Numbered from the stretch's first letter, positions 29,744 to 46,170 are shown. The stretch is 64,000 bases of DNA from Candidatus Omnitrophota bacterium (GCA_050250375.1 JBFWOS010000001.1:1086361-1150360); one strand, 5' to 3'. The notes: generated from the letters alone by a model not told the origin. Numbers and translations are program-made.

Positions 29744-31636
29744 TTATTCAAAGGGTTTTCCCAATTCAAATCTGGACTTGAGATCATCATGATATATGCT
29801 TTTAGCCTGATAAAACATCTTTCGAGCCTTACCCTGATATCCCAATTCTTGATAAATAGAACCCAAACGATAGTAACTGCGGGCGTCATCTGGATTAATG
29901 TCCAGGGTTTTCTGAAAAAACTCTACAGCCAGTTCATTCTGCCCCATTGAGGAATAACATTGTCCGATTTGAAAATAGGCTCTATAGTGTTTTGGATCTA
30001 AGGTTATAACCTGATTGAAATGCCGGATCGCTTCGGTATAATTCTTTGTCCTCAAATTAATCATCCCTAAATAATATTGCGCCCGAAGATGATAACCAGA
30101 TGATTTGTCAACCTTCTGCAATTCTTCAAAAGCGGTTTTATCTAAATTATTATAATAGTTGATAACTCCCAGATAATAATGAATATATGGGGCATCCTCC
30201 TGGATCAAGGCGAGACTATACCGGTAATTCAATTCCTGGTTCTGGCTATAAAACAAATTATACGGATGTATAAAGTCCGGTTCGATTTCCATTGCCTTAA
30301 ACCATGCGTCCAGTGATGAATTAAAATCATTCTTCTGAATAAATAACCATCCCAGATAACTCAGTGTTTCAATGTCGTTCGGTGAGTTTCGCAATAATCT
30401 TTTAACCTCGGCAATAGCCGGATCAAACATTTTTTTGTCTTCGTACATTCTGGCCGCGATATAATCATCATCAACAAAAGCTGAAAACCGGCGCGGCGGA
30501 TAACCCAGCCGATCAATAGTCAGAATAAAAATAGCGGCATTTATAACCAGATAAAATCCGTAAACAAGAACAACGGATTTGCAAACCCGGGAACGCCTAA
30601 ATCCTTCTGACAACATTTTGGCTGTGAAACAAACCGCTGGAATCAATACAATCGCCGCCCACCAAAACTCCCCCCACTTTAAGCCTGGCAGACTAAAAAA
30701 ACTCAACACACTGAAAACGACCGCAAAAATAAAATATAAAAGTTTGTAAAAATCATTTTTTATAAATTTAACAGAATATACCGTTCCAACCAGTAGAATA
30801 ATCCCCGTCAGACCGTCAATAATTGCATCCTCCCAACTGATTCTTAACCGATAGTCGACTCCTTCCAGCCAGGATAATGGCGCGATCAAGAAGAAGTTTA
30901 GTGCCGTCCGGTTGGGGATCCAGGCCGGCTTCAAATACATCTCGGGATTAAAAATCAACTGAGAGCTGCCGTAAATCGTGACCCATAAAATCCAGGGTGA
31001 AATCGTAACAATAAAGAATAAAAATGTTAAATAAAACTCCTTTGTTCGAAACCACTCTCTTTTTTTATTATCCGTAAATAAGAATAAAATCAATGCCGCC
31101 GCTAAAAGCAGACTTACTCCTTTTGTCAGAAAGGCCAATCCGCCTAGCGGTCCCAACCACAAAAACAGCTTTCGGTCGTTAGTTTTCACCGCTTTATGAT
31201 AGATCCAGATGATCAGCGTCGTTAAAAACAGCAACAGGCTGTTATTTTCCGACTTTACAGAAACATGCATATGAAACTGATTGAACGCTAGTAAAAATAC
31301 GGCCCAAAGGGCTTCCTGTTTTCCAATTTCCAGAACAAGGACATAAAGGACAACCAGCGTCAGGATACCAAACAACAAATGAAAAAAACGGACACCTAAA
31401 TTGGATTCGCCCAAAAACAGTGTTCCTATCTTGGTGGCATAGACGCTCAACAGCGGATGTGTTTCATAAGGGTCCTCAGCAGGAAGATTCAAATGATCCG
31501 GATTAAACGAAATTGAACGCGCGATTAATATCCCCTTACGCTCATCTTCTGTAAAAGGCGCGTTGAGAAGCATAATGCGCAATAATGAACCGATGAAAAT
31601 AAACGCAGTTAAAGTTATGTAATGTCTTTTCATCAA
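29744..31636 (-). CDS. GT-C-type membrane glycosyltransferase fused to C-terminal TPR repeats (TMTC/PMT_2-like)
   Basis: N-terminal ~11 TM helices followed by ~250 aa of TPR-like repeats (YYLGVINYYNN..., AQYYLGMINLRTKNYTEAIRHF..., AYFQIGQCY..., SYYRLGSIYQELG). Confidence 0.55.
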   Translation of the reverse strand: MMKRHYITLTAFIFIGSLLRIMLLNAPFTEDERKGILIARSISFNPDHLNLPAEDPYETHPLLSVYATKIGTLFLGESNLGVRFFHLLFGILTLVVLYVLVLEIGKQEALWAVFLLAFNQFHMHVSVKSENNSLLLFLTTLIIWIYHKAVKTNDRKLFLWLGPLGGLAFLTKGVSLLLAAALILFLFTDNKKREWFRTKEFYLTFLFFIVTISPWILWVTIYGSSQLIFNPEMYLKPAWIPNRTALNFFLIAPLSWLEGVDYRLRISWEDAIIDGLTGIILLVGTVYSVKFIKNDFYKLLYFIFAVVFSVLSFFSLPGLKWGEFWWAAIVLIPAVCFTAKMLSEGFRRSRVCKSVVLVYGFYLVINAAIFILTIDRLGYPPRRFSAFVDDDYIAARMYEDKKMFDPAIAEVKRLLRNSPNDIETLSYLGWLFIQKNDFNSSLDAWFKAMEIEPDFIHPYNLFYSQNQELNYRYSLALIQEDAPYIHYYLGVINYYNNLDKTAFEELQKVDKSSGYHLRAQYYLGMINLRTKNYTEAIRHFNQVITLDPKHYRAYFQIGQCYSSMGQNELAVEFFQKTLDINPDDARSYYRLGSIYQELGYQGKARKMFYQAKSIYHDDLKSRFELGKPFE

Positions 31637-33261
31637 TCGGAACTTGTCCTTTTAAAAATGTACACACCCTCATTATCTTTGGAAAATTGACGGATATGTT
31701 TAAACGTATGCCAGAACAGTTCCGGCCTTGTTAGATCATACCAATAGAGATTTATTTGTTTCACCGGCATAAAATCGATCCCCCGGGAAGAATAATTCTG
31801 CATTATTTGTTCGGCTTGATAAAGATAAATCCCAAAAGCAACGATATAGTCAGGAACTTCTTCCCCTTTGAAATGAATCCGGGGCAAGTCCTTAAATTGG
31901 GTGCTTTCTTTTTCGATTTGCCAGGCGTACAGCGGCTCCGGCGCATGATACATTAACGGGTATGCCGCATAATCCGGGGTCACCCACAGATTGTCCTGCG
32001 AAGAAATATTCTGACGAATCCATTGAGCCGTTTCCCAGTACGCGCTGGGGGGAGGATTTAGAATTTCCAAAATGTAATTAAAAATCGTTGACCGAATCGT
32101 GCCCCGGGCAATGACCTGACTAAAAATCGTTTTATCATCAATACCGGCTAGAGACCCCCCGTGTAAAATGTTCGTGAAAAATGACAGAACAATGATACTC
32201 AAAGCTATTAATTTTGAGTGAACCCGAATAAGATGCACGCTCAGTACAGTGATCAAAATCCCCAAAGGAATTAAAGGAACCAGATAACGGACAAACGCCA
32301 CCGACAATAAACTAATCGGTTGGGGAGACATAACCGAAACCACCAAAACATAAATAAAGAAAACCTGAAAACAGCGCCATAACCGCCTGTCTTTATGAAA
32401 AAGCGCTAAACCAGGCGCTAATAATCCGATAATTGCCCCCACACCTAATTCACAACGGTTAAAATCCCTCCAATTCCATAAAAACAAAAATCCTTTTTCA
32501 ATAATCCATGGCTTTCTGGGGACACCCCAAACATCAATCGATAAAGGATTATAAAAACTGACGAGGACTGCTCCTAATACCAATTGACTGGTTAAAAACA
32601 AAATTATTTGTTTTCTGTTCCACGGTTTTTCTTTATTTCCCCAGAAAAAATAATCGGCCGTTAAACCACCCACAACCCCGGCATAACATAGATAATTCGA
32701 ACATAACAACAAAAAAGAAAACAGGCTCAAAATAACGGTTGTTTTTGTACGGTTATCGCGAAAATGATAAAAATACGCCACAAGGACAGAAAACAACACG
32801 GCTGGGCCAAAGTAACGGCACTGGCGAAAAAACAGAAAAAATGAAACATTCGTCAAAAAACCTAAACACATAAGGATCCAGGTTATCTGCGGGGCCTGGC
32901 TGCGTCTCAACCAGAATAAGACAACCCCTAACGTCACTAATCCACAAAATGCAAATGGCATCCTGGCCGCTAATGCTGATCCCGGCGCCTGCCCCACAAA
33001 CGGCGCTGCCAGATAAAAAGATAATGGCGGGATAAACCGATTACGAAAATCTTTCAATTCTACCCCGGAATTATACGCGACAATATTTTGCCCGATCTTA
33101 GCGCTTGTATCACCGGTCCTCCAGACGGACTGGGCAAATAAAGCGGTCGTCGCCTCGTCATCCCATAAGGCGTATGATCCCAGGTTACAAAATAATAGAA
33201 ATGAGGCCGCCAAGAGAACAACAATACTCAGGAAGACTTGGGTTTGATTATTTGGAGGCAT
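31633..33261 (-). CDS. GT-C membrane glycosyltransferase, ArnT/PMT (GT39/GT83)-like
   Basis: First periplasmic loop carries LWDDEATTALFAQ, the DE-containing signature of ArnT/PMT-type GT-C enzymes. Polytopic, 542 aa. Confidence 0.6.
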   Translation of the reverse strand: MPPNNQTQVFLSIVVLLAASFLLFCNLGSYALWDDEATTALFAQSVWRTGDTSAKIGQNIVAYNSGVELKDFRNRFIPPLSFYLAAPFVGQAPGSALAARMPFAFCGLVTLGVVLFWLRRSQAPQITWILMCLGFLTNVSFFLFFRQCRYFGPAVLFSVLVAYFYHFRDNRTKTTVILSLFSFLLLCSNYLCYAGVVGGLTADYFFWGNKEKPWNRKQIILFLTSQLVLGAVLVSFYNPLSIDVWGVPRKPWIIEKGFLFLWNWRDFNRCELGVGAIIGLLAPGLALFHKDRRLWRCFQVFFIYVLVVSVMSPQPISLLSVAFVRYLVPLIPLGILITVLSVHLIRVHSKLIALSIIVLSFFTNILHGGSLAGIDDKTIFSQVIARGTIRSTIFNYILEILNPPPSAYWETAQWIRQNISSQDNLWVTPDYAAYPLMYHAPEPLYAWQIEKESTQFKDLPRIHFKGEEVPDYIVAFGIYLYQAEQIMQNYSSRGIDFMPVKQINLYWYDLTRPELFWHTFKHIRQFSKDNEGVYIFKRTSSD

Positions 33262-34906
33262 CAGTCACGGAATCCTTAGGTTCAAACACATAATGAACAT
33301 TTATCGTGTGATGATAATATGACAGCTCAAAACATGGAAATATATGGGTTTGCTTATAATATTGGTTAATTGCATCCTTAAACCGGGGTGTCCAGCGGTC
33401 GTACTCCATCCCCACCCCTGTCATGATGATTATTCCAAACCGATGGTTCTTCAGATCGTTAATTATTCGGCCTTCATCCCATTTTCCATCTAGGGCCAAC
33501 TGAGCCATGGAGAAGGACTGATAGACAGACTCTTTCCCGTTTTGAAGGGCATATCCCATATATTCAGATAACACTTCCCCGGATGAGTCGCGAATCAATT
33601 CAGTCATATCGTTTGAGGCCTGACGGTATTCCGCTGACGGCAGGGTAAAATCAATCCGTTTGTGAAGAATTAATAGTTGTATAATGAGTAACATGAAAAA
33701 AAATAAACCCAGCAGATGGGCTTCCCATTTTAGAGCTCCCCTCTCGAACCGGCTTAAAAGTAAACCTGTCAACACGCAATTTGCGGCCCAGAACTCCAAA
33801 AAGTAATTTATGGATGCCCCCAATTTCCCCGCGGTTATTGTGACCAGCAGCGAAAACAACCAAAAGAACTCGGGAACAGACATTTCCCTTTTCTTAAAAG
33901 CGATAACGACTGACAAGGCCGATATCCCCGTCAAAACCCAATGTGTATTCCAGAACTCTTTAAACCATTTGAAAAAATCACTCAGCTCAAACGAACTCAT
34001 CGTATAAAATACAGTGTGCCGGATAAACTCTCCATGGGTAACACAATTAAGCGCAAAGAGAACCCCGGCCGTTATCCCAAAGAACAAAAGCAGAAATAAT
34101 TTAAAATACTCTACGTTTCGTTTCCTATCTTGTCCCTTTATAATGTTCCATCCGTACCAAGCCGCACAAGCTACCGGTGCGGCAATCATACTTTGACGTG
34201 AATATAACGCGGCGCTAAAGCATAATACGGATAAAAAAATCGCAACAAAATCCTTAGGCTGATCTTGATTTGTGACAAGACTAATCCCGGCCAGGACAAA
34301 CATCAAAGCAAACACATCAATCCGGCAAAGGACTGACCAACAGATCAACCAGCTGGACGTAAAAAAGATTAAACCGGCAATCAGAGCCGACACCTGCTGC
34401 CGGGTGACATTGTTAACAATCTTATAGATAAAATAACCGGACAAGACAGCGGCCCCGACCGAAAGCATTCGTCCCAGCATAATTTTCGGGCCAAAAACCT
34501 TAATCAGACCTGCCAGGATAAATTCGAAGAACGGCGTATAGTTCATGACGAAATACGGCTCCCGGTCAATGGGAGAATATATATTTTCTCCCTTTGACAA
34601 CAACCAGGCCCGATTAATGATCAACCCTTCCCCGACATCAAGATCATACGGATAGACGATCAAATTAAATGCATAGGCCGCATAGTTCAGGAAGTTATAC
34701 ACCAGAACAGCCGCCATAACCCATAAAAAAATTCTGACTATCCAGTTTTCCTGAGAAGGTGTTTTGGGTAATTGAGACATTCTAGTTTGATTTCCTGATT
34801 TAAACTCAATCCTACCAGACAATATTAATTCTGCTCTTGAAGAATCTCGGGTTTGCTTAAAAAGGGAACCGCTTGATTTTTGACTAAATTTATTACTGCC
34901 AAACAA
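33248..34906 (-). CDS. Polytopic membrane protein, putative GT-C glycosyltransferase
   Basis: Polytopic membrane protein with a soluble 45-aa N-terminus. A likelier start is the Met at ~34780 (MSQLPK...), which removes the 82-nt overlap with the upstream gene. Contains PYDLDVGEGLIINRAW in the first loop. Confidence 0.4.
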   Translation of the reverse strand: MFGSNKFSQKSSGSLFKQTRDSSRAELILSGRIEFKSGNQTRMSQLPKTPSQENWIVRIFLWVMAAVLVYNFLNYAAYAFNLIVYPYDLDVGEGLIINRAWLLSKGENIYSPIDREPYFVMNYTPFFEFILAGLIKVFGPKIMLGRMLSVGAAVLSGYFIYKIVNNVTRQQVSALIAGLIFFTSSWLICWSVLCRIDVFALMFVLAGISLVTNQDQPKDFVAIFLSVLCFSAALYSRQSMIAAPVACAAWYGWNIIKGQDRKRNVEYFKLFLLLFFGITAGVLFALNCVTHGEFIRHTVFYTMSSFELSDFFKWFKEFWNTHWVLTGISALSVVIAFKKREMSVPEFFWLFSLLVTITAGKLGASINYFLEFWAANCVLTGLLLSRFERGALKWEAHLLGLFFFMLLIIQLLILHKRIDFTLPSAEYRQASNDMTELIRDSSGEVLSEYMGYALQNGKESVYQSFSMAQLALDGKWDEGRIINDLKNHRFGIIIMTGVGMEYDRWTPRFKDAINQYYKQTHIFPCFELSYYHHTINVHYVFEPKDSVTDASK

Positions 34907-36630
34907 ATGGTCAATGCCGTGACGATTAATCCGATTATAAAAGTTTCAGGAAGATAGTATAATCTGATCTGATAAGTCCCGGGCGGCAACAGGACGGAAA
35001 TCAACCCATGGATTTCTGTTACTGGTGTTTTCTTACCAGCAACCTCCGCCTTCCATCCCTGATGATAATTTTGATTGATCATCAATAGATTCGCCTCATT
35101 CAAGTTAACCGAGAATCTTTGTTCGTTTGGTGAGAAATATTCTTGGTCAATTTCCCCGTACGGTCGGTCCAAATAAAATTCTCCCCTGTAATCCGGTTCC
35201 CCCATCACTTTCACATCTCCCTGCTTAAGTTGCATTACTTCGTAAGCCTCAATTATCCCGCCGTTACTAAGAAAAACGGGATATATTGAACTGTTCACCA
35301 AATAGTCCTCATAAAACAAAACTTCCCTGTATCTCTGAGCAAATATAATATTTTCCCGAAGCTGTACAGATTCAACTCTAAACGCATTCTGAAACACCGA
35401 AGAGTTTGATTCGTATAAATCATATGTAACCAACATAAAAAGAGCCATCGGTATAACAAATAAATAATTCTTATGTTGATTACTTTTCTTTTGCATGTAT
35501 TGGTCAAATGCATAAAACGTCATCCCGGCAATAATCGAAAGATAGAAAATAAACCCAAGGATAAACCTGGAGGGGACAGTCAAAGAATCATACACTGGAA
35601 ATTTGTGAAGCATGGACCAAAGGTTTAACAATGGCGAATTACCCATCGCAATGATGAACGTGATCAGACCAGAACAAATCAACGGCCATTGCTTTTCGAA
35701 AAACTTTATAGTCCCCCACATACATAAAATTAACGGAATATATCCGACGTAAGCCCCGTATTCATGCCATTCGTAAACCAATCCCATCCTGTAACCATCC
35801 AGCCAATTCATCATATCCAATATGCTTTGGTCAGGATTCAATAGCATATGAAACAACACGTTTATCGAAACGGCGCTGTCATCAGACATCACCCGCGGAT
35901 TATGTCCAATGAAATCCAACATCGGGATCAATTTAACGGCACAAAAGAGAAATGTCCCGGCAAGAATGACGCCCAATGATTTAACCGGGAACCATTGCCG
36001 CATCTGGATGGACTTTAAAAAAGCAAACAGAACTATAAAAACCATCATAATATTAAAAACATCCACACTTCCATTGAGCAGGATCAGGCTTAGAAAAATG
36101 ATTCCCCCCAAAATATTTTTTGATTCTTCTAAACTTTTTAAATAAAATAAAAAAAACCACGGGACAAACGCCATGGCCAGCCATTCTGTGTGCCCTTCTG
36201 TGAGATGCAGCGAGAACAAAGAAGAGCCCATAAAAATAAACGATGATAAATACCCTCCCATTCCCCGAACACCGAGATGTTTGGTCAAAATATACATTCC
36301 GCAGAAACCTAAAAAAAGATGCACAGTAATTTGTATTTTTAACCCCATGATCGGTCCAAAAAATAATACGAAGATGAAAAACGGAGAAAGAAACGGTGAA
36401 TGCGGATGGGCAAGCATAACATTCCCGCCATTCACATAAGGATTCCAGAGAGGAAATTGGTGATACGTTAAAATGGTTTTATGCGGAACCGCATTCCACA
36501 TAATAAATTGATCCCAGTCCTTCTGCCCGAACAGTTCGTTGTTTTCAAAAATGGAATGAGAAAAAATGATAGCAGCCAGTGCAAAAAGAAGCATCGTGAT
36601 GAAAAAATTATTTTTCATAAAGTTCAACAT
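34825..36630 (-). CDS. Polytopic membrane protein with C-terminal extracytoplasmic domain (YfhO/GT-C-like)
   Basis: ~12 TM segments followed by a ~170-aa soluble C-terminal domain. Sits in the GT-C array. Confidence 0.35.
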   Translation of the reverse strand: MLNFMKNNFFITMLLFALAAIIFSHSIFENNELFGQKDWDQFIMWNAVPHKTILTYHQFPLWNPYVNGGNVMLAHPHSPFLSPFFIFVLFFGPIMGLKIQITVHLFLGFCGMYILTKHLGVRGMGGYLSSFIFMGSSLFSLHLTEGHTEWLAMAFVPWFFLFYLKSLEESKNILGGIIFLSLILLNGSVDVFNIMMVFIVLFAFLKSIQMRQWFPVKSLGVILAGTFLFCAVKLIPMLDFIGHNPRVMSDDSAVSINVLFHMLLNPDQSILDMMNWLDGYRMGLVYEWHEYGAYVGYIPLILCMWGTIKFFEKQWPLICSGLITFIIAMGNSPLLNLWSMLHKFPVYDSLTVPSRFILGFIFYLSIIAGMTFYAFDQYMQKKSNQHKNYLFVIPMALFMLVTYDLYESNSSVFQNAFRVESVQLRENIIFAQRYREVLFYEDYLVNSSIYPVFLSNGGIIEAYEVMQLKQGDVKVMGEPDYRGEFYLDRPYGEIDQEYFSPNEQRFSVNLNEANLLMINQNYHQGWKAEVAGKKTPVTEIHGLISVLLPPGTYQIRLYYLPETFIIGLIVTALTICLAVINLVKNQAVPFLSKPEILQEQN

Positions 36631-38284
36631 ACACCCCGTCTTTTGTTTTTTTAAGGGTTTTCGTATAATGCATATCCATATAGCGCCTTACATTTTGTGA
36701 ATTTAATCCCAATATTTTGGATTCTACCCCATCATTATGCCAACTGGCAATAATCAACCATACCCGTTCAAAATTTTGATCAACGGTCGAATCATCCATG
36801 AGTAACATTGTTCCGTTCGGCAAAGGAACAAAGACTTGCATTTGATCGATTTTATCCTGAGGGATCATCCGCAACAAAGCGTTAATCTTTAAAAAACGAT
36901 TATCAAACCTCTGCATTAATTTCGGAAACATAAAAAACCGAAATTGTTCAAACGACAACGGTAGTTTTTCTCCTGAATGTTTTAACAAATATGAGAAAAC
37001 CATCACATACGCCTGGGTATCCGTAACGACTATCCGGTCTCCCTTTTTAAAATGATCTTTAACATAATCAAACTGCGACCAATAATTTTTTTTAGGGACG
37101 ACCCCTGTAAAATAAAGCGCACGGGCCGGATGGTCAAACATGTAATTCCTGTAATAATTATAAAGACAAGAAACCTGCAGAAGTAAAATACAAATGACCA
37201 CGAAGTTCTGGTCTTTTTTTGAAGTTATCCCCTCTATCCCTTTCGCGATCAGTAAAAAATAATATGGTGAGAAAATCAATAGTTGGCGGTTGATATATAA
37301 CGGAATAACTTTCAAAGATAAAAAATAAATTAAAATAATTGGAGCAACGCCCAAGAGTAAAATCAAAACCGCTTTTGTGCGGGATTCGTTAAAACACACG
37401 TAAAACCCCCAGAAAAACAGAATAAGAAATATCACCAGACCAATGCTATATTGAATAATTCCAGCCGAATATCCGAGGCTGAAAATCATCCAGGTGAACA
37501 AAAACATGCCGGGTGTAGGCGAAGGCAGCCAGAAGTCTTCCTTGACAAAACTGACCTGACTGCTAAAAACAGGAAGATAAAAAGAACTGACTGCGGCCAT
37601 GATGACCATCGCCAAAAACCATTTTTTCATTTTTGGTTTATTGTCCTTAAAATTCATGGCCACGACAAATATACTTAACAAAAAAACAGCATAATATGTA
37701 GCAAACAACGATAAAACACCCAATATGGAAAATCCGATCCAATATCGCCATTGATCTGTGTTCAAGGCACGAATGAACAAATAGACCATAGACAAAGTCA
37801 AAAATACGGCCAAAGAGTACACCCTGGCTTCCTGGGCATACCATATATGGACGGGACTAATAGCCATTACCAGCAACGCATAAACGCTTACCTTTTGATT
37901 AAAAAACAATCTGGACAATTGATAAAAGACTCCCAATGCCAAAATACTAAACATGACAGATAGAATGCGCAGCGATTCCCCGTCCCCAAAAAATCGGCTG
38001 ACCTGATATATCAAACCATAATAAAGAGTTGAATGTGGATCATTATGAATACGATCTCTAAAAATAGTAGACCCGTTCAGATGTGATAATTGAGCCATCT
38101 TGTGAATATTATCATATGAGAACAAATCCGTTCCCAATTCATCAAACCATAGGTCATAGGCATATAGTCCATAAACTCTTACAATTATTGCACATATAAA
38201 AATAATTAAAATTATAAATTTTGGCTGACGCATCTTCAAAATAATATTTTTATTATTATTAATATTTATCAATGTAATATACAC
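36608..38284 (-). CDS. GT-C membrane glycosyltransferase, ArnT/PMT-like
   Basis: N-terminal loop YAYDLWFDELGTDLFSY (DE motif as in ArnT/PMT). Polytopic with a C-terminal soluble domain. Confidence 0.5.
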   Translation of the reverse strand: MYITLININNNKNIILKMRQPKFIILIIFICAIIVRVYGLYAYDLWFDELGTDLFSYDNIHKMAQLSHLNGSTIFRDRIHNDPHSTLYYGLIYQVSRFFGDGESLRILSVMFSILALGVFYQLSRLFFNQKVSVYALLVMAISPVHIWYAQEARVYSLAVFLTLSMVYLFIRALNTDQWRYWIGFSILGVLSLFATYYAVFLLSIFVVAMNFKDNKPKMKKWFLAMVIMAAVSSFYLPVFSSQVSFVKEDFWLPSPTPGMFLFTWMIFSLGYSAGIIQYSIGLVIFLILFFWGFYVCFNESRTKAVLILLLGVAPIILIYFLSLKVIPLYINRQLLIFSPYYFLLIAKGIEGITSKKDQNFVVICILLLQVSCLYNYYRNYMFDHPARALYFTGVVPKKNYWSQFDYVKDHFKKGDRIVVTDTQAYVMVFSYLLKHSGEKLPLSFEQFRFFMFPKLMQRFDNRFLKINALLRMIPQDKIDQMQVFVPLPNGTMLLMDDSTVDQNFERVWLIIASWHNDGVESKILGLNSQNVRRYMDMHYTKTLKKTKDGVYVELYEK

Positions 38285-38355: not shown

Positions 38356-38586
38356 TTATTGGTAGCAAATGCCGGAGAAAACCGAAGCACCACCGGGCGT
38401 ACTTCCTGTATTCACCCAATTCGTGGTTGTCCCGCCACAGGCGGTAGGCCCCAAAGATGTCGCCAGCGATAACGTCGCGCATTGGGCTTGCACATCTTTC
38501 GGTTCAGACAGGACAACATAGCCAAAAAGACTTACAAAGACCATATATATGATTAGCAGCGAATAAATTATTCTATCTTTGTTCAT
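38356..38586 (-). CDS. Small secreted Cys-rich peptide, paralog 3
   Basis: 76 aa. Signal peptide ending VQA-Q. Mature peptide with 3 Cys, Thr/Gly/Ser-rich. Confidence 0.5.
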   Translation of the reverse strand: MNKDRIIYSLLIIYMVFVSLFGYVVLSEPKDVQAQCATLSLATSLGPTACGGTTTNWVNTGSTPGGASVFSGICYQ

Positions 38587-38601
38587 ATTAAAGCCCCTAG
38601 C

Positions 38602-38862
38602 TTAATTTTGAAAACATAAATATGCGTTAATCGGCACACCGTATGGTCCCGCAGTATATCCCATAATTTGTGGACCACTGGGCTGAGCCGTGCCCGGACA
38701 ACCTGGTATACATCCGGCACCTGTACAGGTTTCAATCGTTATTTGAAAACACGTAGTCTGGGCATTGACAATACTTGGTTTATATAAAACCGCATAAAGA
38801 AGCAAATAAACGAATACCATCGTCGTTGAAATGAACATATATATGGTTCGTTTTCTATTCAT
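38602..38862 (-). CDS. Small secreted Cys-rich peptide, paralog 2
   Basis: 86 aa. Signal peptide ending VNA-Q. Mature peptide QTTCFQITIETCTGAGCIPGCPG... with 5 Cys. Confidence 0.55.
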   Translation of the reverse strand: MNRKRTIYMFISTTMVFVYLLLYAVLYKPSIVNAQTTCFQITIETCTGAGCIPGCPGTAQPSGPQIMGYTAGPYGVPINAYLCFQN

Positions 38863-38876
38863 AAAAAATAACCTTT

Positions 38877-39140
38877 TTATGGATTAAAGCATAAACCTGT
38901 TTTCATCTGTACTCCATATACACCAGGGGTGTATCCACTATTGACAATATCCGATGATAATAAACCGTTCAATGGACATATAGGTGTACACGTTGCTCCT
39001 ATGCATGTTGCTAGGGTGATTCTATAACACACCTGCGCTTCAACTTCTTTTGGTTTACTCAAAAAAGAATATAAAAAAGTATACGCCGCAACAATCATCA
39101 CTGGAATAAATAAATAGATCAAACGCCTTTTAGACATCAT
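38877..39140 (-). CDS. Small secreted Cys-rich peptide, paralog 1
   Basis: 87 aa. Sec-type signal peptide (n-region KRR, h-region, cleavage-like VEA-Q). Mature ~52 aa with 5 Cys, Thr/Gly-rich. Confidence 0.55.
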   Translation of the reverse strand: MMSKRRLIYLFIPVMIVAAYTFLYSFLSKPKEVEAQVCYRITLATCIGATCTPICPLNGLLSSDIVNSGYTPGVYGVQMKTGLCFNP

Positions 39141-39219: not shown

Positions 39220-40563
39220 TTAAGGTTGACAGGCTCCCCCCGGACAATTCGCAGCACCGGCACAACAATCACCATTATTTACCCCTCCGACACAAACACC
39301 GGTTTGACCCGGAAGACAACAATATGGTCCTCCTGGAGCCCCGCCGCCGACACAGTTATTACTACAGCAATCCGCAGGAACCGCACAATCAATTCCATTT
39401 GGAGTACAGGATCCAGCCGTATCAAACTGGCAACACCCTAGAACTTCTTGATTCCCTGCATTACAGCCACTTATATCTGCTACACCAGTTCCACACGCAT
39501 TCTGTTGAACAGCCATACAACAATATCCGCCCCCTCCAATCCATTCACACCAAGGAAAAAATTCACATCTGGCAAAACGATTGTCGATGGCCGGTGTAGG
39601 ATATAACAAAGCCACGTTTGTTAAAAAAGATGTGCATGGCGTGTGTTCTTGACAGCCGCTGAACGGATTCCAATTGCAGGCAGATCCATAAATCTGTTCA
39701 CATTGGTCAAAGGGTAAGCCCACGCAACCTGTTGGTTCAGGGGGGGCGGGCGGGGGTATTCGTACACCGCAATCACCGGCCGAAAGCGTACAATCTATAA
39801 TACACACACCTAAAATATTGATTGATCCCGACGGACATTCACAGGATGTTGCCCCAAAACCCGGAACAAACGAAGTCGCACATTCCCACTGACATTTGGG
39901 TGCACTCCCGACAGGAGCACTGCACTTACCTTCTTCAACAAAAACAACATTCTGACTGGCAGGCAAATTGATATTGTCTTGAGGACAGATGTCCGTAGCG
40001 TATTCAGGGTCTCCTGGATTGGGTGGATTTAAACATTGATTTAAACAATTTCTATTAAATTGGCATTCCACTCGGGTGGGATTGTTGTGATCAGGATCGC
40101 CCCCGCAAGAATATAAGGCAGGAACCTCATCGGCGGCACATCCCTGAGTACCGCAATTAATTGGCACAGGCAATTGAACGGGCGTGGTACAACAAGCCGG
40201 CGTTTCAGTACATAAATAATTTAAGCCGCCCGGAGGGGAATTATAACCCAGAGGATTACAAATCCATGCTTGAGTGGCTTCGTATTCTTCACATGTTCCA
40301 TAACCGCAACATGGCGGTAAACTGCATGGTTCTTGATAACTACAAGTCCCGGTAACATCGATGACTCCAGGGGGACTTGCCCCGATTGGATCTTGGAAGG
40401 AATCTGTGACAGAGTCCTCCCAGCCTTTGATATTGGCATTCCAAGAACGGATTACGTAAGGGCTCATGACATAAACCCCGGCCAGGACTAAAATAATCAA
40501 AAGGGCATATTCAATAATACTCTGCCCTTTTTCAGAAAACAATTTTTGAAAAAGCTTCCGCAT
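39220..40563 (-). CDS. Flp-pilin-like (class III signal peptide-like) N-terminus fused to a ~400-aa Cys/Pro/Gly-rich extracellular domain
   Basis: N-terminus KGQSIIEYALLIILVLAGVYV fits the Flp motif G-x4-EY followed by a hydrophobic helix. The rest has >50 Cys (CC, CxC, CxxC patterns) and low hydrophobicity. Confidence 0.5.
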   Translation of the reverse strand: MRKLFQKLFSEKGQSIIEYALLIILVLAGVYVMSPYVIRSWNANIKGWEDSVTDSFQDPIGASPPGVIDVTGTCSYQEPCSLPPCCGYGTCEEYEATQAWICNPLGYNSPPGGLNYLCTETPACCTTPVQLPVPINCGTQGCAADEVPALYSCGGDPDHNNPTRVECQFNRNCLNQCLNPPNPGDPEYATDICPQDNINLPASQNVVFVEEGKCSAPVGSAPKCQWECATSFVPGFGATSCECPSGSINILGVCIIDCTLSAGDCGVRIPPPAPPEPTGCVGLPFDQCEQIYGSACNWNPFSGCQEHTPCTSFLTNVALLYPTPAIDNRFARCEFFPWCEWIGGGGYCCMAVQQNACGTGVADISGCNAGNQEVLGCCQFDTAGSCTPNGIDCAVPADCCSNNCVGGGAPGGPYCCLPGQTGVCVGGVNNGDCCAGAANCPGGACQP

Positions 40564-40693: not shown

Positions 40694-43600
40694 CTATAGA
40701 CTTTGATGGCATTGAAGCAATACATCCGCTCCTAATTTCCAGCAATGATACAGGTCTCCCAGGAACGCCGCTGGACACGGAGCCCCTTCATTTATTGTAT
40801 AGCCGGGATACCCGGAGAAAGCCGCCCCGCAGGCAGGAGAGAATGGAATCAACTGTGTTGTTTGCTGAATTTTAATCCATTCCCCGTCCTCCGCACAAGC
40901 ACCCGCATCAACTGAATACCCGGAATTACATTGATATTCACATTTTGGAGCCCCGCAGGTAATCACCAGAGATCTGTTCATATTCGTCCCACCCGGGATA
41001 TTCGTATCATCCCCGGAACAATATGCTGCATTGGCCGGTACGCTACCGATACAAATATTCGGGTCGCACACTCCACCGCCGTCATGATATGTATCCGTGC
41101 AGATGTATTCACATTTCGTTCCAACCGTGCACGCAGGCACAACCGTTCGTGGCACGTCGGAATTGCCGGGGATATTAGCATCGTCTCCGGAACATATTGT
41201 TGTGTTTGCAGGCACAGCTCCTATACATTGGTTAAGATTGGTACACCCTGAACCATCGAAATTAAATCCGTCATCACAAATATATTCACATTTTGTTCCA
41301 GCAGTACAAGCTGCCACGACCGTGCGCCCGACATCAGCATTCCCCGGAATATTGATATCATCTCCGGAACAAATCGTCGCATTAATTGGAATAGCCCCTG
41401 TACATATATTTACATCACATGAAGCCCCTCCGAAATTATATCCATCATTACAAATATATTCACATTTAGTTCCAGCCGTACAAGCACCCACCAGAGTACG
41501 GGAAACATCAGAATTGCCCGGGATATTTGTTCCGTCACCGGAACATATGGACGCGTTGGAAGGAGTTGCTCCTGTACAGACATTGACATCACATTGGTTG
41601 GCTCCTCCGTCGTGATATCCGCTGTTGCAAGTATACTCACACAAAGTTACTGTACAAGCCGATACGGTTGTAACCGGCGTATCCGCCAATAATCCGGTGT
41701 TATCTCCCGGACAAATCAGTGCGTTCGCATCAGGTGTTCCTGTACACATGAACGGACGGCACGTGTTCGCGTCTTTGGTAAATCCCGGATCACAGGTGTA
41801 TTCACACTTTGTTCCGCCGGTACATGCATTCGCCACGGTCCGGCCGACATTTAAATTTCCCGGAATGTTTGTATCATCTCCGCTGCATAACGTCGCGTTG
41901 GATGGAACCGTTCCGGTACAAATATTGACGTCACAAACCCCACCGGACTCGTGGAATCCGTCATTACACAAATATTGACAATAAATCGGCAACGTACAAG
42001 CGCCTACGGCCGTGCGGACAACGTCCGAGTTCCCAGGAATTCCGGTATCGTCCCCTGCACAGAGTGTTGCGTTTGACGGAACAGTCCCCGTACAGGCATT
42101 TAAATCACACACCCCGGCGTCATAATTGTATCCGTTGCTGCAGGTATATTCACATTTTGTTCCAATCGTACAGACCGGAACCAAAGTTCGAGCCACATCA
42201 CTGTTCCCAGGAATATTCGTGCCATCCCCCGTACACAATCCCGCATTTGGCGGTACCGCCCCGGTACAGACATTGGCCACACAAATCGTTCCGTTAAAAT
42301 TGAAACCACTGCTGCAGGTATATTCACATTTTGTTCCGGCCGTACAAGCCGCCACCAAGGTTCGGGTAACATCACCATTACCGGGAATATTAATGTTATC
42401 CCCGATACACAAAGTTGCATTAGCCGGCGGCGCTCCGGTACAAACATTGGCATCACATTGATTAATTCCGGCGTCCTTATATCCGCTGTTGCATGTATAT
42501 TCACACATCGTTGCTGTACAGGCTGATACTGTTGTGACCGGCGTATCCGCCAGTAACCCAATATTATCTCCCGGACAGATGGTTGAATTCGAAGCCGGGG
42601 TGCCGATACAATCAAACGTTTCCACCACACAAGCTGTACCGGCGAGATTTAATTCATATCCGGGGTCACAAATGTATTCACACTTGGTCGCTGTACAAGC
42701 GCCAACAAGTGTTAAAGCTAAATTGGCCCTTCCGGTTATATTGGTCCCATCCCCCGCACACAATGTTGCATTAGACGGCGCTGATCCGGTACAAACATTA
42801 ACGTCACACTGGTTAACCCCCGCATCATGATATTCCGTGTTACACCGGTATTCACATTTTGTACCAAACGTACAGGTATTTACCGTCGAAACTGACACAT
42901 CCACGGTCAATCCTGCATTATCTCCAGCACACAGTACAGAATTCGGATCAGGCACTCCGGTACATGCCGGCGCACGACAATCGTTTCCATCAAGAACAAA
43001 ACCGGCATTACATTCATATTCACATTGTGTTCCGGCCGTACACCCTCCTGTAATAACGGCTGTTTTGGGAGTATTCGCCGGCAAATCATCATTATCATTC
43101 AGACAGATTGTGCTATTTGTCGGATCCGGGCCGGTACATAGATAAAGGGGAACACAGGTTATTCCACTGCGGACATAAAACGGCCGGCAGACATGCTCGC
43201 ACTTCACGGGCTGGGTACACGTATCGACTAAGGTATTCGGGGTGTCTGCTGTAAGGCCGGTATCATCCGGTTCGCATATGGTATCAAGATCATAATCGAC
43301 ACAGCACAAATTAGAATGGGCGGGTGCGGGACCGGTACATTGAAACAGAACACAGGCAGTACCATCACTGTAATATCCCGGGTCGCATAAATATTCACAT
43401 TTAGTTCCCGCTGTACATGCGCTGACCGGAGTCCGTGGAGTATCTGCACTTAAACCCGTATCATCGCCGGCACAGAGTGATGAATTAGTTGGAACAGCCC
43501 CGGTACAGACATACGGCACACAACTACCAGCGGAATAATAGTAACCGGCATTACAGCTATATTCACATTTTGTCGGGCCGGTACAAGAAGCAACAAGCGT

Positions 43601-44956
43601 AATCGGAACATCTCCTCTGGTCAGGCCGGCATTATCTCCCGAGCATATTGACGCGTTCGCCGGAGCTGCGCCGGTACAGACAAAAGTACAACTTCCACAG
43701 GTGTACTCATCTCCGCACGGGTTAATACTGCAATCTCCGGTATAATTATATCGGCAGTTTGAACCCGATACCTGACAACCGTCGCTTAAACTGACCGGAC
43801 AATCGGTATAACTGGCACAAGCCGGTGCGATCGCGTAACAGGCCTGAACCGGAGGTTCCAAACAATATCTGCATTCACCGGATGATAATTTTGTATAATC
43901 ATCGCATAAATATTCACATTTTGTTCCGGCCGTACAGGTCGCTACTGAAGAATTCGGTGTATTTGCTGTCAGTCCGGCATTATCTCCCGGGCATAAAGTA
44001 GAATTAATCGGGACCGCGCCGGTACAAGAACAAAAACCGCAATCGGCATTACAACTAAATCCACTGTTGACTGTCCCGCAAGTCTCCGTCCCGGTACAGC
44101 ACCCGTCCCCGCAGACATCGGTCGTGCAATCCCCAGGACAGGTACACTTATTTTCCACTCCGTTACAAATTAAATCCCCGCAAACCGGCACCGCGCAATC
44201 CGACGCACAGCTCACACTATCTTCCGTACCGTCGCATGTTCCGTCCCCGCAGCATGGCGAACAGCTCCCACACGTGCCGCATTGACCGGTGCAATCAAAA
44301 TGGGAATCCCCGCAGGAACACGCCCCGCATTCAACACAGGGATTATACCCCGGCCCGGCCCCGCCGGTGCAGTGTTCAGTACCGACAGCACAAAACCCGT
44401 CACCGCAGACAATCGGACAGGCCCCGCAGTCACTCGTACACATCGGGTCCCCTGTCTCCGGAGCAGGCAACATGCTATCGTTAGATCCGCAGCTTTCCTG
44501 AAAACCCCAATACGTTACGGCATTGGAACACACCCCATCACCGCAAGTCGGACATTCGGCCATAGTCACACCGAGAAATGAACCTCCCAGCACAGCGGCT
44601 TTAAAACTGTTCCACTGGGTCTGAGTCGCCGTGGGAATAAAATATTCTATAATGGACGTGTTGGATATATCCCAGCATTCCGCTTCACCAACATTAGGTG
44701 TTGTGTTGGAGGTATAACTCAAATTAATTCGTAGAGAAGGAATCGTTCCAAGACCTGCATTCCCATCGAGCATATATCCGCCGTTTTCCCATCCATAAAT
44801 CCGGCAGTTGACATTTCCTGACGGGCCGTCATCACAATAACATCCCGTAGCCGGCGGCACACAAGGATCACCGACCGCTGAAAATGCCGCAGAGGCAAAA
44901 CCCAGCATTATGGTTGTAATGAGACCGCCTATTTTTCCCCAAGAACGTTTTTTCAT
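40694..44956 (-). CDS. Giant secreted cysteine-rich repeat protein (about 17 tandem six-Cys modules of roughly 57 aa)
   Basis: N-terminal signal peptide (MKKRSWGKIGGLITTIMLGFASAAFSA). The repeat consensus is roughly CTGxxPxNxxLCxGDxxxIPGNxDVxRTxVxACTxGTKCEYxCxxGYxxDGxxCDVN. Many spurious overlapping ORFs on both strands come from the repetition. Confidence 0.8.
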   Translation of the reverse strand: MKKRSWGKIGGLITTIMLGFASAAFSAVGDPCVPPATGCYCDDGPSGNVNCRIYGWENGGYMLDGNAGLGTIPSLRINLSYTSNTTPNVGEAECWDISNTSIIEYFIPTATQTQWNSFKAAVLGGSFLGVTMAECPTCGDGVCSNAVTYWGFQESCGSNDSMLPAPETGDPMCTSDCGACPIVCGDGFCAVGTEHCTGGAGPGYNPCVECGACSCGDSHFDCTGQCGTCGSCSPCCGDGTCDGTEDSVSCASDCAVPVCGDLICNGVENKCTCPGDCTTDVCGDGCCTGTETCGTVNSGFSCNADCGFCSCTGAVPINSTLCPGDNAGLTANTPNSSVATCTAGTKCEYLCDDYTKLSSGECRYCLEPPVQACYAIAPACASYTDCPVSLSDGCQVSGSNCRYNYTGDCSINPCGDEYTCGSCTFVCTGAAPANASICSGDNAGLTRGDVPITLVASCTGPTKCEYSCNAGYYYSAGSCVPYVCTGAVPTNSSLCAGDDTGLSADTPRTPVSACTAGTKCEYLCDPGYYSDGTACVLFQCTGPAPAHSNLCCVDYDLDTICEPDDTGLTADTPNTLVDTCTQPVKCEHVCRPFYVRSGITCVPLYLCTGPDPTNSTICLNDNDDLPANTPKTAVITGGCTAGTQCEYECNAGFVLDGNDCRAPACTGVPDPNSVLCAGDNAGLTVDVSVSTVNTCTFGTKCEYRCNTEYHDAGVNQCDVNVCTGSAPSNATLCAGDGTNITGRANLALTLVGACTATKCEYICDPGYELNLAGTACVVETFDCIGTPASNSTICPGDNIGLLADTPVTTVSACTATMCEYTCNSGYKDAGINQCDANVCTGAPPANATLCIGDNINIPGNGDVTRTLVAACTAGTKCEYTCSSGFNFNGTICVANVCTGAVPPNAGLCTGDGTNIPGNSDVARTLVPVCTIGTKCEYTCSNGYNYDAGVCDLNACTGTVPSNATLCAGDDTGIPGNSDVVRTAVGACTLPIYCQYLCNDGFHESGGVCDVNICTGTVPSNATLCSGDDTNIPGNLNVGRTVANACTGGTKCEYTCDPGFTKDANTCRPFMCTGTPDANALICPGDNTGLLADTPVTTVSACTVTLCEYTCNSGYHDGGANQCDVNVCTGATPSNASICSGDGTNIPGNSDVSRTLVGACTAGTKCEYICNDGYNFGGASCDVNICTGAIPINATICSGDDINIPGNADVGRTVVAACTAGTKCEYICDDGFNFDGSGCTNLNQCIGAVPANTTICSGDDANIPGNSDVPRTVVPACTVGTKCEYICTDTYHDGGGVCDPNICIGSVPANAAYCSGDDTNIPGGTNMNRSLVITCGAPKCEYQCNSGYSVDAGACAEDGEWIKIQQTTQLIPFSPACGAAFSGYPGYTINEGAPCPAAFLGDLYHCWKLGADVLLQCHQSL
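40950..43750 (-). repeat. Intragenic tandem coding repeats (~170-nt period) inside the giant Cys-rich gene
   Basis: Recurrent nucleotide blocks such as ggtacaaaatgtgaatat / cggaacaaaatgtgaatatac visible every ~170 nt on the plus strand. Confidence 0.7.
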
Positions 44957-44988: not shown

Positions 44989-46170
44989 TCAGCGGGAAGA
45001 ATCCATTTCCATGCCGCGCTTGATTTGATTAATTTCTTTTCTCAAAGAATCAATCTCTTCACTTTGATGTTCGATCAATACCTGCTGTTCTTTAATCGCT
45101 TCAATCATCGGAGCGATCAAATTTCCGTATTTCACATATTTTCTGCCGGACGTTTCATCCGTATGAACCAACTCAGGATAAACTTTTTCGACATCCTGGG
45201 CGGTAATCCCGATATCCTGTTGGCCATTCTCTTTCCAGGTATAACTCAAACCTTCAATTTGTTTAATACCGCTCAACCCTAAAACCGGTTTAAAATTCTC
45301 CTTCAGACGGGCATCCGAAGAATATAAATAAGCATTCGCCGTAACGGTCCCGTTAACATCAAATTCGGTGGTCGGAGCGGCATTTAAAACCCCGATCCTC
45401 CGGGTAGATTGAAGGATCGTCAATAAATGGCTGGCATTATCCGCATCATAAACGTAAAATTGGGCCCCTCCGCCGATGTCACTGTGAACATCAAAACCAC
45501 CGCCAGGAGCTATGGCCAAATCACCGTTGGTCGTGGAAATCGCCGGATTTGCCCCGTTAAAAATCAAATCATTGGTCAACTCAACATCACCGTTGACCTC
45601 CAGCTCCGATGTAGGACTGGTTGTACCGATTCCGACATTTCCCGCACTTGTTATACCCAGACGAAACGCCTCAGCCCCTTCAGCACCGCCCCAAATTGAA
45701 AATCCGTCGGTCAAGCTGGTTTGATGCGCGCGCAATTCCCAAACGGAGTCGGCGGCATCTGTGTTCTGAATCCTGATCGCCGTAAAATCCGTAGCTGCGC
45801 TCTGAACATGCAGTTTGGTCGCCGGAATATTTGTCCCGATGCCTATATCTGCGGTAGACCATGATATGGGATAAAGATCCGTACCGTCCAAAGTCCATTC
45901 ACCAACAGAGTTGGTATAAGAAGTTCCGTCGCAAAACTGTAAATCCCCTGAAACATCAACATACATGGTCCCGGTCGTTGAAACGCTGCAAGCCGGTGGA
46001 GACGCATTCGGGGCCAGTCTTAATGATTGATATACACCAAAGGGAGACGGATAATACGTTGTCATCGTCAAAGTCTCTGCCTGGGCTAAAACCGGCATCA
46101 CCATCAAGGTGATGGTAAGCATCGTGATTCTATATTTTTTTATCATGTCCCTGCCTTTTTGTTGCGTCAA
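44989..46170 (-). CDS. Secreted fibre-like protein with C-terminal peptidase S74 intramolecular chaperone auto-processing domain
   Basis: Signal peptide (MIKKYRITMLTITLMVMPVLAQA). C-terminus SDARLKENFKPVLGLSGIKQIEGLSYTWKE...DIGITAQDVEKVYPELVH...YGNLIAPMIEAIKEQQ matches the SDxRxK...IGxIAQE chaperone-of-endosialidase/tail-fibre domain. Gly/Thr/Ser-rich middle. Confidence 0.7.
   Translation of the reverse strand: MTQQKGRDMIKKYRITMLTITLMVMPVLAQAETLTMTTYYPSPFGVYQSLRLAPNASPPACSVSTTGTMYVDVSGDLQFCDGTSYTNSVGEWTLDGTDLYPISWSTADIGIGTNIPATKLHVQSAATDFTAIRIQNTDAADSVWELRAHQTSLTDGFSIWGGAEGAEAFRLGITSAGNVGIGTTSPTSELEVNGDVELTNDLIFNGANPAISTTNGDLAIAPGGGFDVHSDIGGGAQFYVYDADNASHLLTILQSTRRIGVLNAAPTTEFDVNGTVTANAYLYSSDARLKENFKPVLGLSGIKQIEGLSYTWKENGQQDIGITAQDVEKVYPELVHTDETSGRKYVKYGNLIAPMIEAIKEQQVLIEHQSEEIDSLRKEINQIKRGMEMDSSR

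Follow-up and report, generated by a model that had tools for sequence, protein, structure and literature searches.

The gene and its modular protein

The window analysed here is the whole stretch of 64,000 nucleotides from a Candidatus Omnitrophota bacterium (GCA_050250375.1, contig JBFWOS010000001.1, positions 1086361-1150360), and the coordinates below are counted from its first letter. At 40694-44956 on the minus strand it carries one intact open reading frame (ORF) for a protein of 1420 residues, which is recorded as a hypothetical protein of a Candidatus Omnitrophota metagenome-assembled genome (MAG). The protein includes 158 cysteines (11.1%), 12% glycine and 11% threonine. An earlier note on this DNA had described a secreted-type protein of about 17 tandem six-cysteine modules. 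This description was confirmed: a hidden Markov model (HMM) of the module identified exactly 17 full copies, at 66-92 bits each, behind an N-terminus resembling a signal peptide and a Cys/Gly-rich region. Splitting the array at the C[TI]G motif, done independently, gave the same 17 modules. Neither Pfam nor NCBIfam holds a model for the six-cysteine module. The 1420-residue protein had no match in NCBIfam or PHROGs, and the full-length phmmer search against the PDB also returned no match.

All regions of the protein are given here on the minus strand. The predicted signal peptide (aa 1-27, MKKRSWGKIGGLITTIMLGFASAAFSA; 44876..44956), as read from the sequence by inspection, has a basic n-region, a hydrophobic core and an A-x-A-type end; it contains one Trp, no Cys and no lipobox. 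It is followed by a unique N-terminal domain (aa 28-136; 44549..44875) with six Cys and three Trp. The local phmmer matches of this domain were orthologs only (P0002, L050 and L114), the dedicated word-index homolog search with it was empty, and no match was found in Pfam, NCBIfam or the PDB. The Cys/Gly-rich region (aa 137-310; 44027..44548) has 34 Cys, one Trp and about five mini-repeats (CGDGxC...E...C..DC, counted by regular expression), and it explains the remaining homolog matches of the full protein (P0006 and P0008-P0023). The array of 17 six-Cys modules (aa 311-1357; 40886..44026) includes 114 Cys and no Trp. The C-terminal domain with the stop codon (aa 1358-1420; 40694..40885) contains four Cys and two Trp and was found in orthologs only; no sorting signal could be recognised in it, and no anchor signal in the protein. 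The Cys number is even in each region (6, 34, 114 and 4), as would be expected if all the cysteines were disulfide-bonded.

The modules start at aa 311, 427, 484, 540, 607, 665, 722, 783, 839, 897, 955, 1013, 1071, 1127, 1185, 1244 and 1302. They are 56-67 residues in length and are joined by linkers of 4-6 residues. A Cys-rich insert of 61 residues (aa 366-426; 43679..43861, minus strand) is located after module 1, and it is kept in the ortholog P0002 (89.6 bits). Six Cys are present in 16 of the 17 modules, and module 4 has eight owing to an insert of 11 residues. The computed consensus is CTGxxPxNATxCxGDxTxIPGxxDVxRTxVxACTAGTKCEYxCxxGYxxxGxxCxxNx, with which the motif quoted in the earlier note agrees. 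The pattern of the whole module family (profile A3) is C1-x10-C12-x18-C31-x5-C37-x3-C41-x10-C52, together with the conserved residues G3, P6, N8, D15, K36, E38, Y39, G44 and Y/F45; all 17 copies conform to this profile. The sequon-like NAT positions that had been pointed out are also present, since N-x-S/T occurs at module positions 8-10 in 12 of the 17 modules. Family-wide, S/T is found at module position 10 in only about 48% of 444 modules.

Seven of the 17 inter-module linkers (aa 717-1302) read C-D-x-N-x-C; the usual linker of the family is C-V-P-Y-V-C. The former resembles the D-x-[DN]-E-C motif of calcium-binding epidermal growth factor (cbEGF) domains, and by this analogy such linkers might possibly form calcium-stiffened junctions.

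Fold and cysteine pattern of the module

Structure prediction with AlphaFold2 gave a predicted local distance difference test score (pLDDT) of 94.2 for a single module. For three consecutive modules, the pLDDT was 93.4 and the predicted template modelling score (pTM) was 0.72. Both models are all-beta and include a three-stranded C-terminal sheet. According to these predictions, the module is a folded unit with a confident fold.

The loss of cysteines was counted in 444 full modules from 152 family proteins. All six Cys are present in 328 of them. C12 and C31 are jointly absent in 108, and loss of either one alone was found in just three modules each, while C1, C37, C41 and C52 are essentially invariant. 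Because C12 and C31 are lost together, the pattern implies an accessory C12-C31 disulfide, predicted from the sequences, on a core of four cysteines.

Comparison with sushi, EGF and TNFR domains

The earlier note had compared the module with the sushi and epidermal growth factor (EGF) domains. The module shares its central hairpin with sushi, but no full-length Sushi match, no Trp and no compatible EGF bonding pattern were found. The Pfam Sushi model (PF00084) scored 42.3 bits over the whole protein, yet none of the stretches passed alone, and the best of them spans only profile positions 18-39 of 56. The same match at the whole-protein level only was observed in 18 of 82 family proteins. In the search of the module profile against the PDB, 15-25 residues of complement control protein (CCP) domains were aligned around 'Y.C..GY', with a best E value of 0.002, and most of the weak structural matches of the module are to CCP chains. 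As the positive control, profile A5, made from the Trp-containing domains of the protein P0004, matched factor H at E 7.6e-8. The comparison of the module profile A3 with the sushi-like A5 in hhalign gave a probability of 16% over 16 columns.

The module is similar to the sushi domains, also called CCP or short consensus repeat (SCR) domains (PF00084; as in factor H, DAF and CD46), in several respects. Both are all-beta extracellular modules of about 60 residues, arranged head-to-tail with short linkers; both have an N-terminal 'C..P..N', a central 'G..x.Y.C..G[YF]...G...C' hairpin and four invariant cysteines. However, the six-Cys module lacks the invariant Trp (the array of 1047 residues contains none) and also the segment that bears the fourth sushi Cys, since the last Cys of a module and the first Cys of the next are 4-6 residues apart. 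Its core spacing is C-x35-C-x3-C-x10-C, to which the putative C12-C31 bond is added. Sushi membership was rejected on these two absences and on the lack of a single-module HMM match.

The similarities to the EGF and cbEGF arrays of the fibrillin type include six cysteines, a C-terminal hairpin resembling 'C.C..G[YF]...G..C', and tandem arrays that are rod-like. The module differs from EGF in having C-x3-C instead of C-x-C, and in its length of 56-58 residues against about 40. The Pfam models EGF, cEGF and EGF_CA did not match the protein at E values up to 0.1. The predicted Cys2-Cys3 bond, which is derived from the joint loss described above, conflicts with the 1-3, 2-4, 5-6 pattern of EGF, and it also conflicts with the 1-2, 3-5, 4-6 pattern of the cysteine-rich domain of the tumour necrosis factor receptor (TNFR), to which there was no sequence match either. 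Both memberships were thus rejected. Judged from its sequence, the six-Cys module is a separate, uncatalogued and uncurated module and not a member of the sushi or EGF families; it may be distantly derived from sushi.

In P0004, a metagenome protein of 1410 residues, a class III-like N-terminus is found together with CGDG repeats, with six-Cys modules and with Trp-containing domains. Since the latter match factor H, bona fide sushi-type domains do occur beside the six-Cys module in prokaryotes.

Base composition, assembly and the ortholog

The GC content of the gene is 0.497, and that of the neighbouring genes is about 0.36-0.47. This excess lies wholly at codon position 2, where the value is 0.576 compared with about 0.27-0.38 in the genes outside the cluster. 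At codon position 3 (GC3) the value is 0.425, inside the range of the neighbours. The GC content expected from the amino-acid composition and the local codon usage is 0.511, compared with the observed 0.497. The synonymous codon usage of the gene was the closest to the window background among the 39 genes tested, a figure that is favoured by the length of the gene. The suggestion that the GC excess is driven by codons and composition is therefore supported. The codon-usage comparison gave no sign of the foreign origin that had also been raised, since GC3 and codon usage are native, and this origin was rejected.

It had also been proposed that high nucleotide identity between the repeats produces many overlapping ORFs. 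The overlapping ORFs do exist (25 of at least 50 aa within the gene), but the identity is not high: between modules it averages 59% and does not exceed 78%, and no exact direct repeat is longer than 28 nt. Tandem Repeats Finder (TRF) reported just two weak two-copy stretches in the gene. Records of the identical protein exist on three contigs, one of them 868 kb long (GCA_050181705.1). The ortholog P0002 (1433 aa, 65% identical over the full length) from a second Omnitrophota MAG (GCA_020632495.1, 2.0-Mb contig) also has 17 modules, and its locus keeps the same gene order. The best match of 15 of the 17 modules is the P0002 module with the same index; same-index pairs are 66% identical, compared with 48% for the other pairings. 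The array thus predates the split of the two species, and each module position is conserved individually.

The low module identity, together with an ortholog that has 17 modules in the same order, makes collapse or chimerism of the assembly unlikely, and the risk to the copy number that had been anticipated was not borne out. In Omnitrophota HKST-UBA13, a close relative of the second MAG, the ortholog is divided between the end of one contig and the start of another (L114 and L026), and each piece carries nine modules. As the array is broken there, short-read assemblies can fail at this gene.

Neighbouring genes

The gene upstream, 33 nt away, encodes a tail-fibre-like protein of 393 residues (44989..46170, minus strand). 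It combines a signal peptide with a beta-helical fibre segment and, at the C-terminus, a Peptidase_S74 intramolecular chaperone in which an SDARLK motif is present. The protein matched Pfam PF13884 (E 1e-14), PHROG tail-fibre families (E down to 3e-27) and the Bdellovibrio Bd2133 fibre in the PDB (8ond, E 7e-9). From its sequence, with the S74 domain, the fibre segment and the signal peptide all found, the protein is classified as phage-tail-fibre-like; in Bdellovibrio, proteins of this kind are known as S74-type mosaic adhesive trimer (MAT) fibres, which serve in prey recognition. According to PMC10769870, the MAT fibres are located on the surface of the predator, and one of them binds prey glycans. 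The 393-residue protein is similar to the MAT fibres of Bdellovibrio bacteriovorus in its signal peptide, its Bd2133-like beta-helical segment and its C-terminal S74 chaperone/protease with SDxxxK. It is much shorter than those fibres (about 1,000 aa). The region around it contains no other phage genes. A MAT/tail-fibre-like gene also adjoins a six-Cys-module gene, on the same strand, in three loci of unrelated MAGs (L013, L056 and L095).

The gene downstream (39220..40563, minus strand) encodes a Cys-rich pilin-like protein of 447 residues with an N-terminus of the Flp/class III type, KG|QSIIEYALLIILVLAGV, as identified by inspection. One divergent six-Cys module was found in it (aa 189-241). 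The protein is also kept in the orthologous loci L002 and L026, and a homolog from another MAG, L077, carries a canonical module; the N-terminal motif is shared by all three. No pilin model of Pfam or NCBIfam matched it at E values up to 0.1, and the phmmer search against the PDB returned nothing. This ORF is not called in the NCBI record of the contig; it is called in a related genome and is probably a missed gene.

Three paralogous small ORFs (38356..39140, minus strand) encode secreted Cys-rich peptides of 87, 86 and 76 residues, which are conserved in L002 and L026. In each, a membrane or signal segment lies at the N-terminus, and the mature peptide, of about 45-50 residues, is rich in Cys. 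A strong sigma-70-like site (39193-39165; 11 of 12 matches, with TG) is located just upstream of them. Whether these peptides are part of the same system as the modular protein is uncertain.

Five consecutive membrane glycosyltransferases of the GT-C type (PMT_2/YfhO-like; 29744..38284, minus strand) follow, in the same order as in L002, and one of them has a TPR tail. They are candidate glycosylation enzymes, and their link to the modular protein is suggested by the context. Because the whole region is collinear in L002, this synteny says little about function. Next to them, the region 5682-29575 (minus strand) contains an unusual run of about seven enzymes of the B12-binding and SPASM radical SAM types; interleaved with these are four paralogs of the GDSL-lipase/TPR type, a GT2, a GT9, an SDR and a DegT aminotransferase. 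The region looks like a large island for the modification of envelope glycans or lipids. The scan of the locus for promoters and terminators gave no clear operon boundaries.

Distribution of the module family

Searched exhaustively with the module profile, 1.84 billion representative proteins yielded 999 clusters at E<=1e-3, 530 of them at E<=1e-10, and the window protein was the top match among the 999. Among the proteins examined, 17 copies are present only in this protein and its ortholog P0002. The cluster look-up for ten family proteins returned no informative names, and a word-index homolog search with the module alignment found nothing. An N-terminal hydrophobic segment is present in 114 of 152 family proteins, and N-termini of the pilin or class III type in six more and in P0004; by their sequences, the family proteins are overwhelmingly of the secreted type. 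The partner domains in the family include CARDB, TSP1, Big_1, LRR, PKD, beta-helix, Flg_new and N_methyl, which, as assigned from sequence, are typical of surface and adhesion proteins. Peptidase_S9 is a further partner domain.

The taxonomic distribution was surveyed in GTDB, with one genome per species, a single strict degenerate DNA pattern for KCEYxCxxGY and the taxon labels of the submitters. At least 119 pattern loci were obtained, and at least 84 were confirmed by a six-frame HMM check; all figures of this census are counted among the matches listed. The verified module loci include at least 35 in the candidate phyla radiation (CPR, or Patescibacteria), at least 15 in named DPANN archaea, at least 10 in unclassified archaea, at least seven in Bdellovibrionota, at least five in Omnitrophota, at least six in unclassified bacteria and at least six in other groups. 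The 35 chance matches to the pattern only, which were used as an internal control, were mostly in Bacteroidota, Firmicutes, Proteobacteria and similar groups. The difference in lineage concentration between verified and chance loci, among the matches listed, corresponds to an odds ratio of 13.6 (p = 1e-8). The module is thus mainly concentrated in CPR, DPANN, Bdellovibrionota and Omnitrophota, which are host-dependent ultra-small or predatory microbes. Among the viral contigs of IMG/VR, the same DNA pattern gave three matches, none of which was a real module.

Literature searches on Omnitrophota, on cysteine-rich and DPANN/Patescibacteria surface proteins, and on prokaryotic sushi domains found no description of this module, and the papers checked for such terms do not mention it. 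What is new is the module family and its distribution, and not the idea of a repetitive surface protein in general.

Proposed function and alternative explanations

From these features we infer that the protein could be a Sec-exported, heavily disulfide-bonded modular rod on or beyond the cell surface, long and fairly stiff, for contact with host or prey cells; in our judgement the chance that this is correct is about even. The signal peptide, as predicted from the sequence, would carry the chain across the inner membrane. The 158 cysteines would then pair, and each module would form the invariant four-Cys core (C1, C37, C41 and C52) and the accessory C12-C31 bond; this pairing is proposed because of the even Cys counts and the joint loss of C12 and C31. 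The 17 small all-beta modules, whose fold is predicted with high confidence, would stack through their linkers of 4-6 residues as an extended array. By analogy with CCP and TNFR-type modules, the rod may be about 40-60 nm long. The parts that it displays for binding would be its two unique terminal domains, the modules, each of which is conserved individually, or both. The rod might also work together with the S74 protein, which is trimeric in this model, and with the module-bearing pilin-like protein, a partnership that is suggested by the adjacency of the genes.

Most Omnitrophota are described in PMC10066038 as ultra-small organisms that depend on a host, and Tad pili and large putative adhesins are ascribed to them. 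Genes with class III signal peptides are also reported near the giant genes of Omnitrophota (PMC10066038; bioRxiv 10.1101/2023.11.21.568195). The 'giant ORFs' and large repeat adhesins of Omnitrophota, Patescibacteria and Nanohaloarchaeota, for which a role in host attachment has been proposed, are similar to the present protein, being secreted, repetitive, poorly annotated and found in host-dependent lineages (PMC10066038; bioRxiv 10.1101/2023.11.21.568195). The present protein differs from them in its ordinary large size (1,420 aa), and in being built on one disulfide-rich module that none of the papers checked for such terms mentions.

Several observations weigh against a surface rod for cell contact. 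Searches with Pfam, NCBIfam and phmmer against the PDB detected none of the known adhesin, lectin or anchor domains in the protein. The synteny with the ortholog spans the whole 24 kb, housekeeping genes included, and alone is no proof of a functional link. The taxon census comprises at least 84 loci, obtained with one strict DNA pattern and the submitters' taxon labels. Outside the orthologs, the adjacency of a fibre gene and a module gene was observed in three of about 80 loci compared with none of 35 controls (among the matches listed), which is not significant.

The alternative that survives best is a structural component of the envelope, such as a sheath, an S-layer-associated protein or a periplasm-spanning glycoprotein, which would be decorated by the GT-C enzymes and have no role in cell binding. 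The same strand continues with the five GT-C genes and a long region for envelope glycans, the protein is Thr-rich with N-x-S/T in 12 of the 17 modules, and no binding domain was recognised in it by Pfam or NCBIfam. However, between the modular gene and the GT-C genes lie four other genes and what is probably a separate promoter. Enzymes of the PMT_2 type are not known to be N-glycosyl oligosaccharyltransferases, and the S/T at position 10 is found in just about 48% of the family modules. The presence of the module on pilin-like proteins and beside tail-fibre-like proteins, and its concentration in host-dependent lineages, also argue against a structural role, which we regard as unlikely.

A secreted multivalent inhibitor or effector, for example an array resembling protease inhibitors, would act on the host and not in attachment. 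Small disulfide-rich modules are typical of inhibitors, and no anchor signal was recognised in the protein; nevertheless, no inhibitor family was matched by sequence in Pfam, NCBIfam or the PDB profile search, the hit that was obtained lies at noise level, and in other proteins of the family the module is joined to a pilin N-terminus or to domains of the surface type. We consider such an activity quite improbable.

It would be still more surprising if the cysteines were ligands and not disulfides, as in a metal-binding or redox protein. The Cys content of 11%, the Cu-binding_MopE motifs in two of 82 family proteins and the organism's probable habitat in low-oxygen water might be taken to favour this. 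The even Cys counts in every region and the strictly joint loss of C12 and C31 point to disulfides instead; moreover, a compact beta fold is confidently predicted without metal, an export signal is present, and the spacing of the cysteines is unlike that of metallothionein or Fe-S motifs.

The acquisition of a complement-control (sushi) or EGF protein from a eukaryote by horizontal transfer, to which the summed Sushi score of 42 bits might point, is hardly tenable. The features that define sushi are absent, and the Cys2-Cys3 bond would exclude the EGF pattern; both GC3 and the codon usage are native. The locus in which the gene is inherited is conserved, and the family is at home in CPR, DPANN, Bdellovibrionota and Omnitrophota. 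Mimicry of eukaryotic CCP was also rejected. Equally remote is an assembly artefact, that is, a collapsed, expanded or chimeric repeat array, because the break across two contig ends in the related short-read MAG is set against the 28-nt longest exact repeat, the mean module identity of 59%, the identical protein on three contigs and the same order of the 17 modules in the ortholog, idiosyncratic ones included.

Significance of the module family

Little is known of the means by which ultra-small episymbionts and predatory bacteria recognise other cells and keep hold of them. The present analysis provides a precise profile for an uncatalogued extracellular module, predicted to fold with confidence, which is concentrated in such lineages of both Bacteria and Archaea. 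It also provides a conserved locus of Omnitrophota, where a MAT-like fibre gene and a module-bearing pilin-like gene flank the array, which is the longest in any protein examined. More tentatively, and with some doubt on our part, the module might be a shared surface-recognition block of cell-dependent prokaryotes that has spread horizontally and was fitted several times to pilin-like proteins and next to tail-fibre-like fibres, and the three-gene cassette might be a dedicated attachment apparatus. The module also occurs in Saccharibacteria and Bdellovibrionota, both of which have cultivated members, so the idea of attachment is genetically testable. If the function is merely structural, the module would still be a new domain family worth curating. 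If the proposed role in attachment is true, the module would be a sequence-searchable candidate for how uncultured organisms grip their partners.

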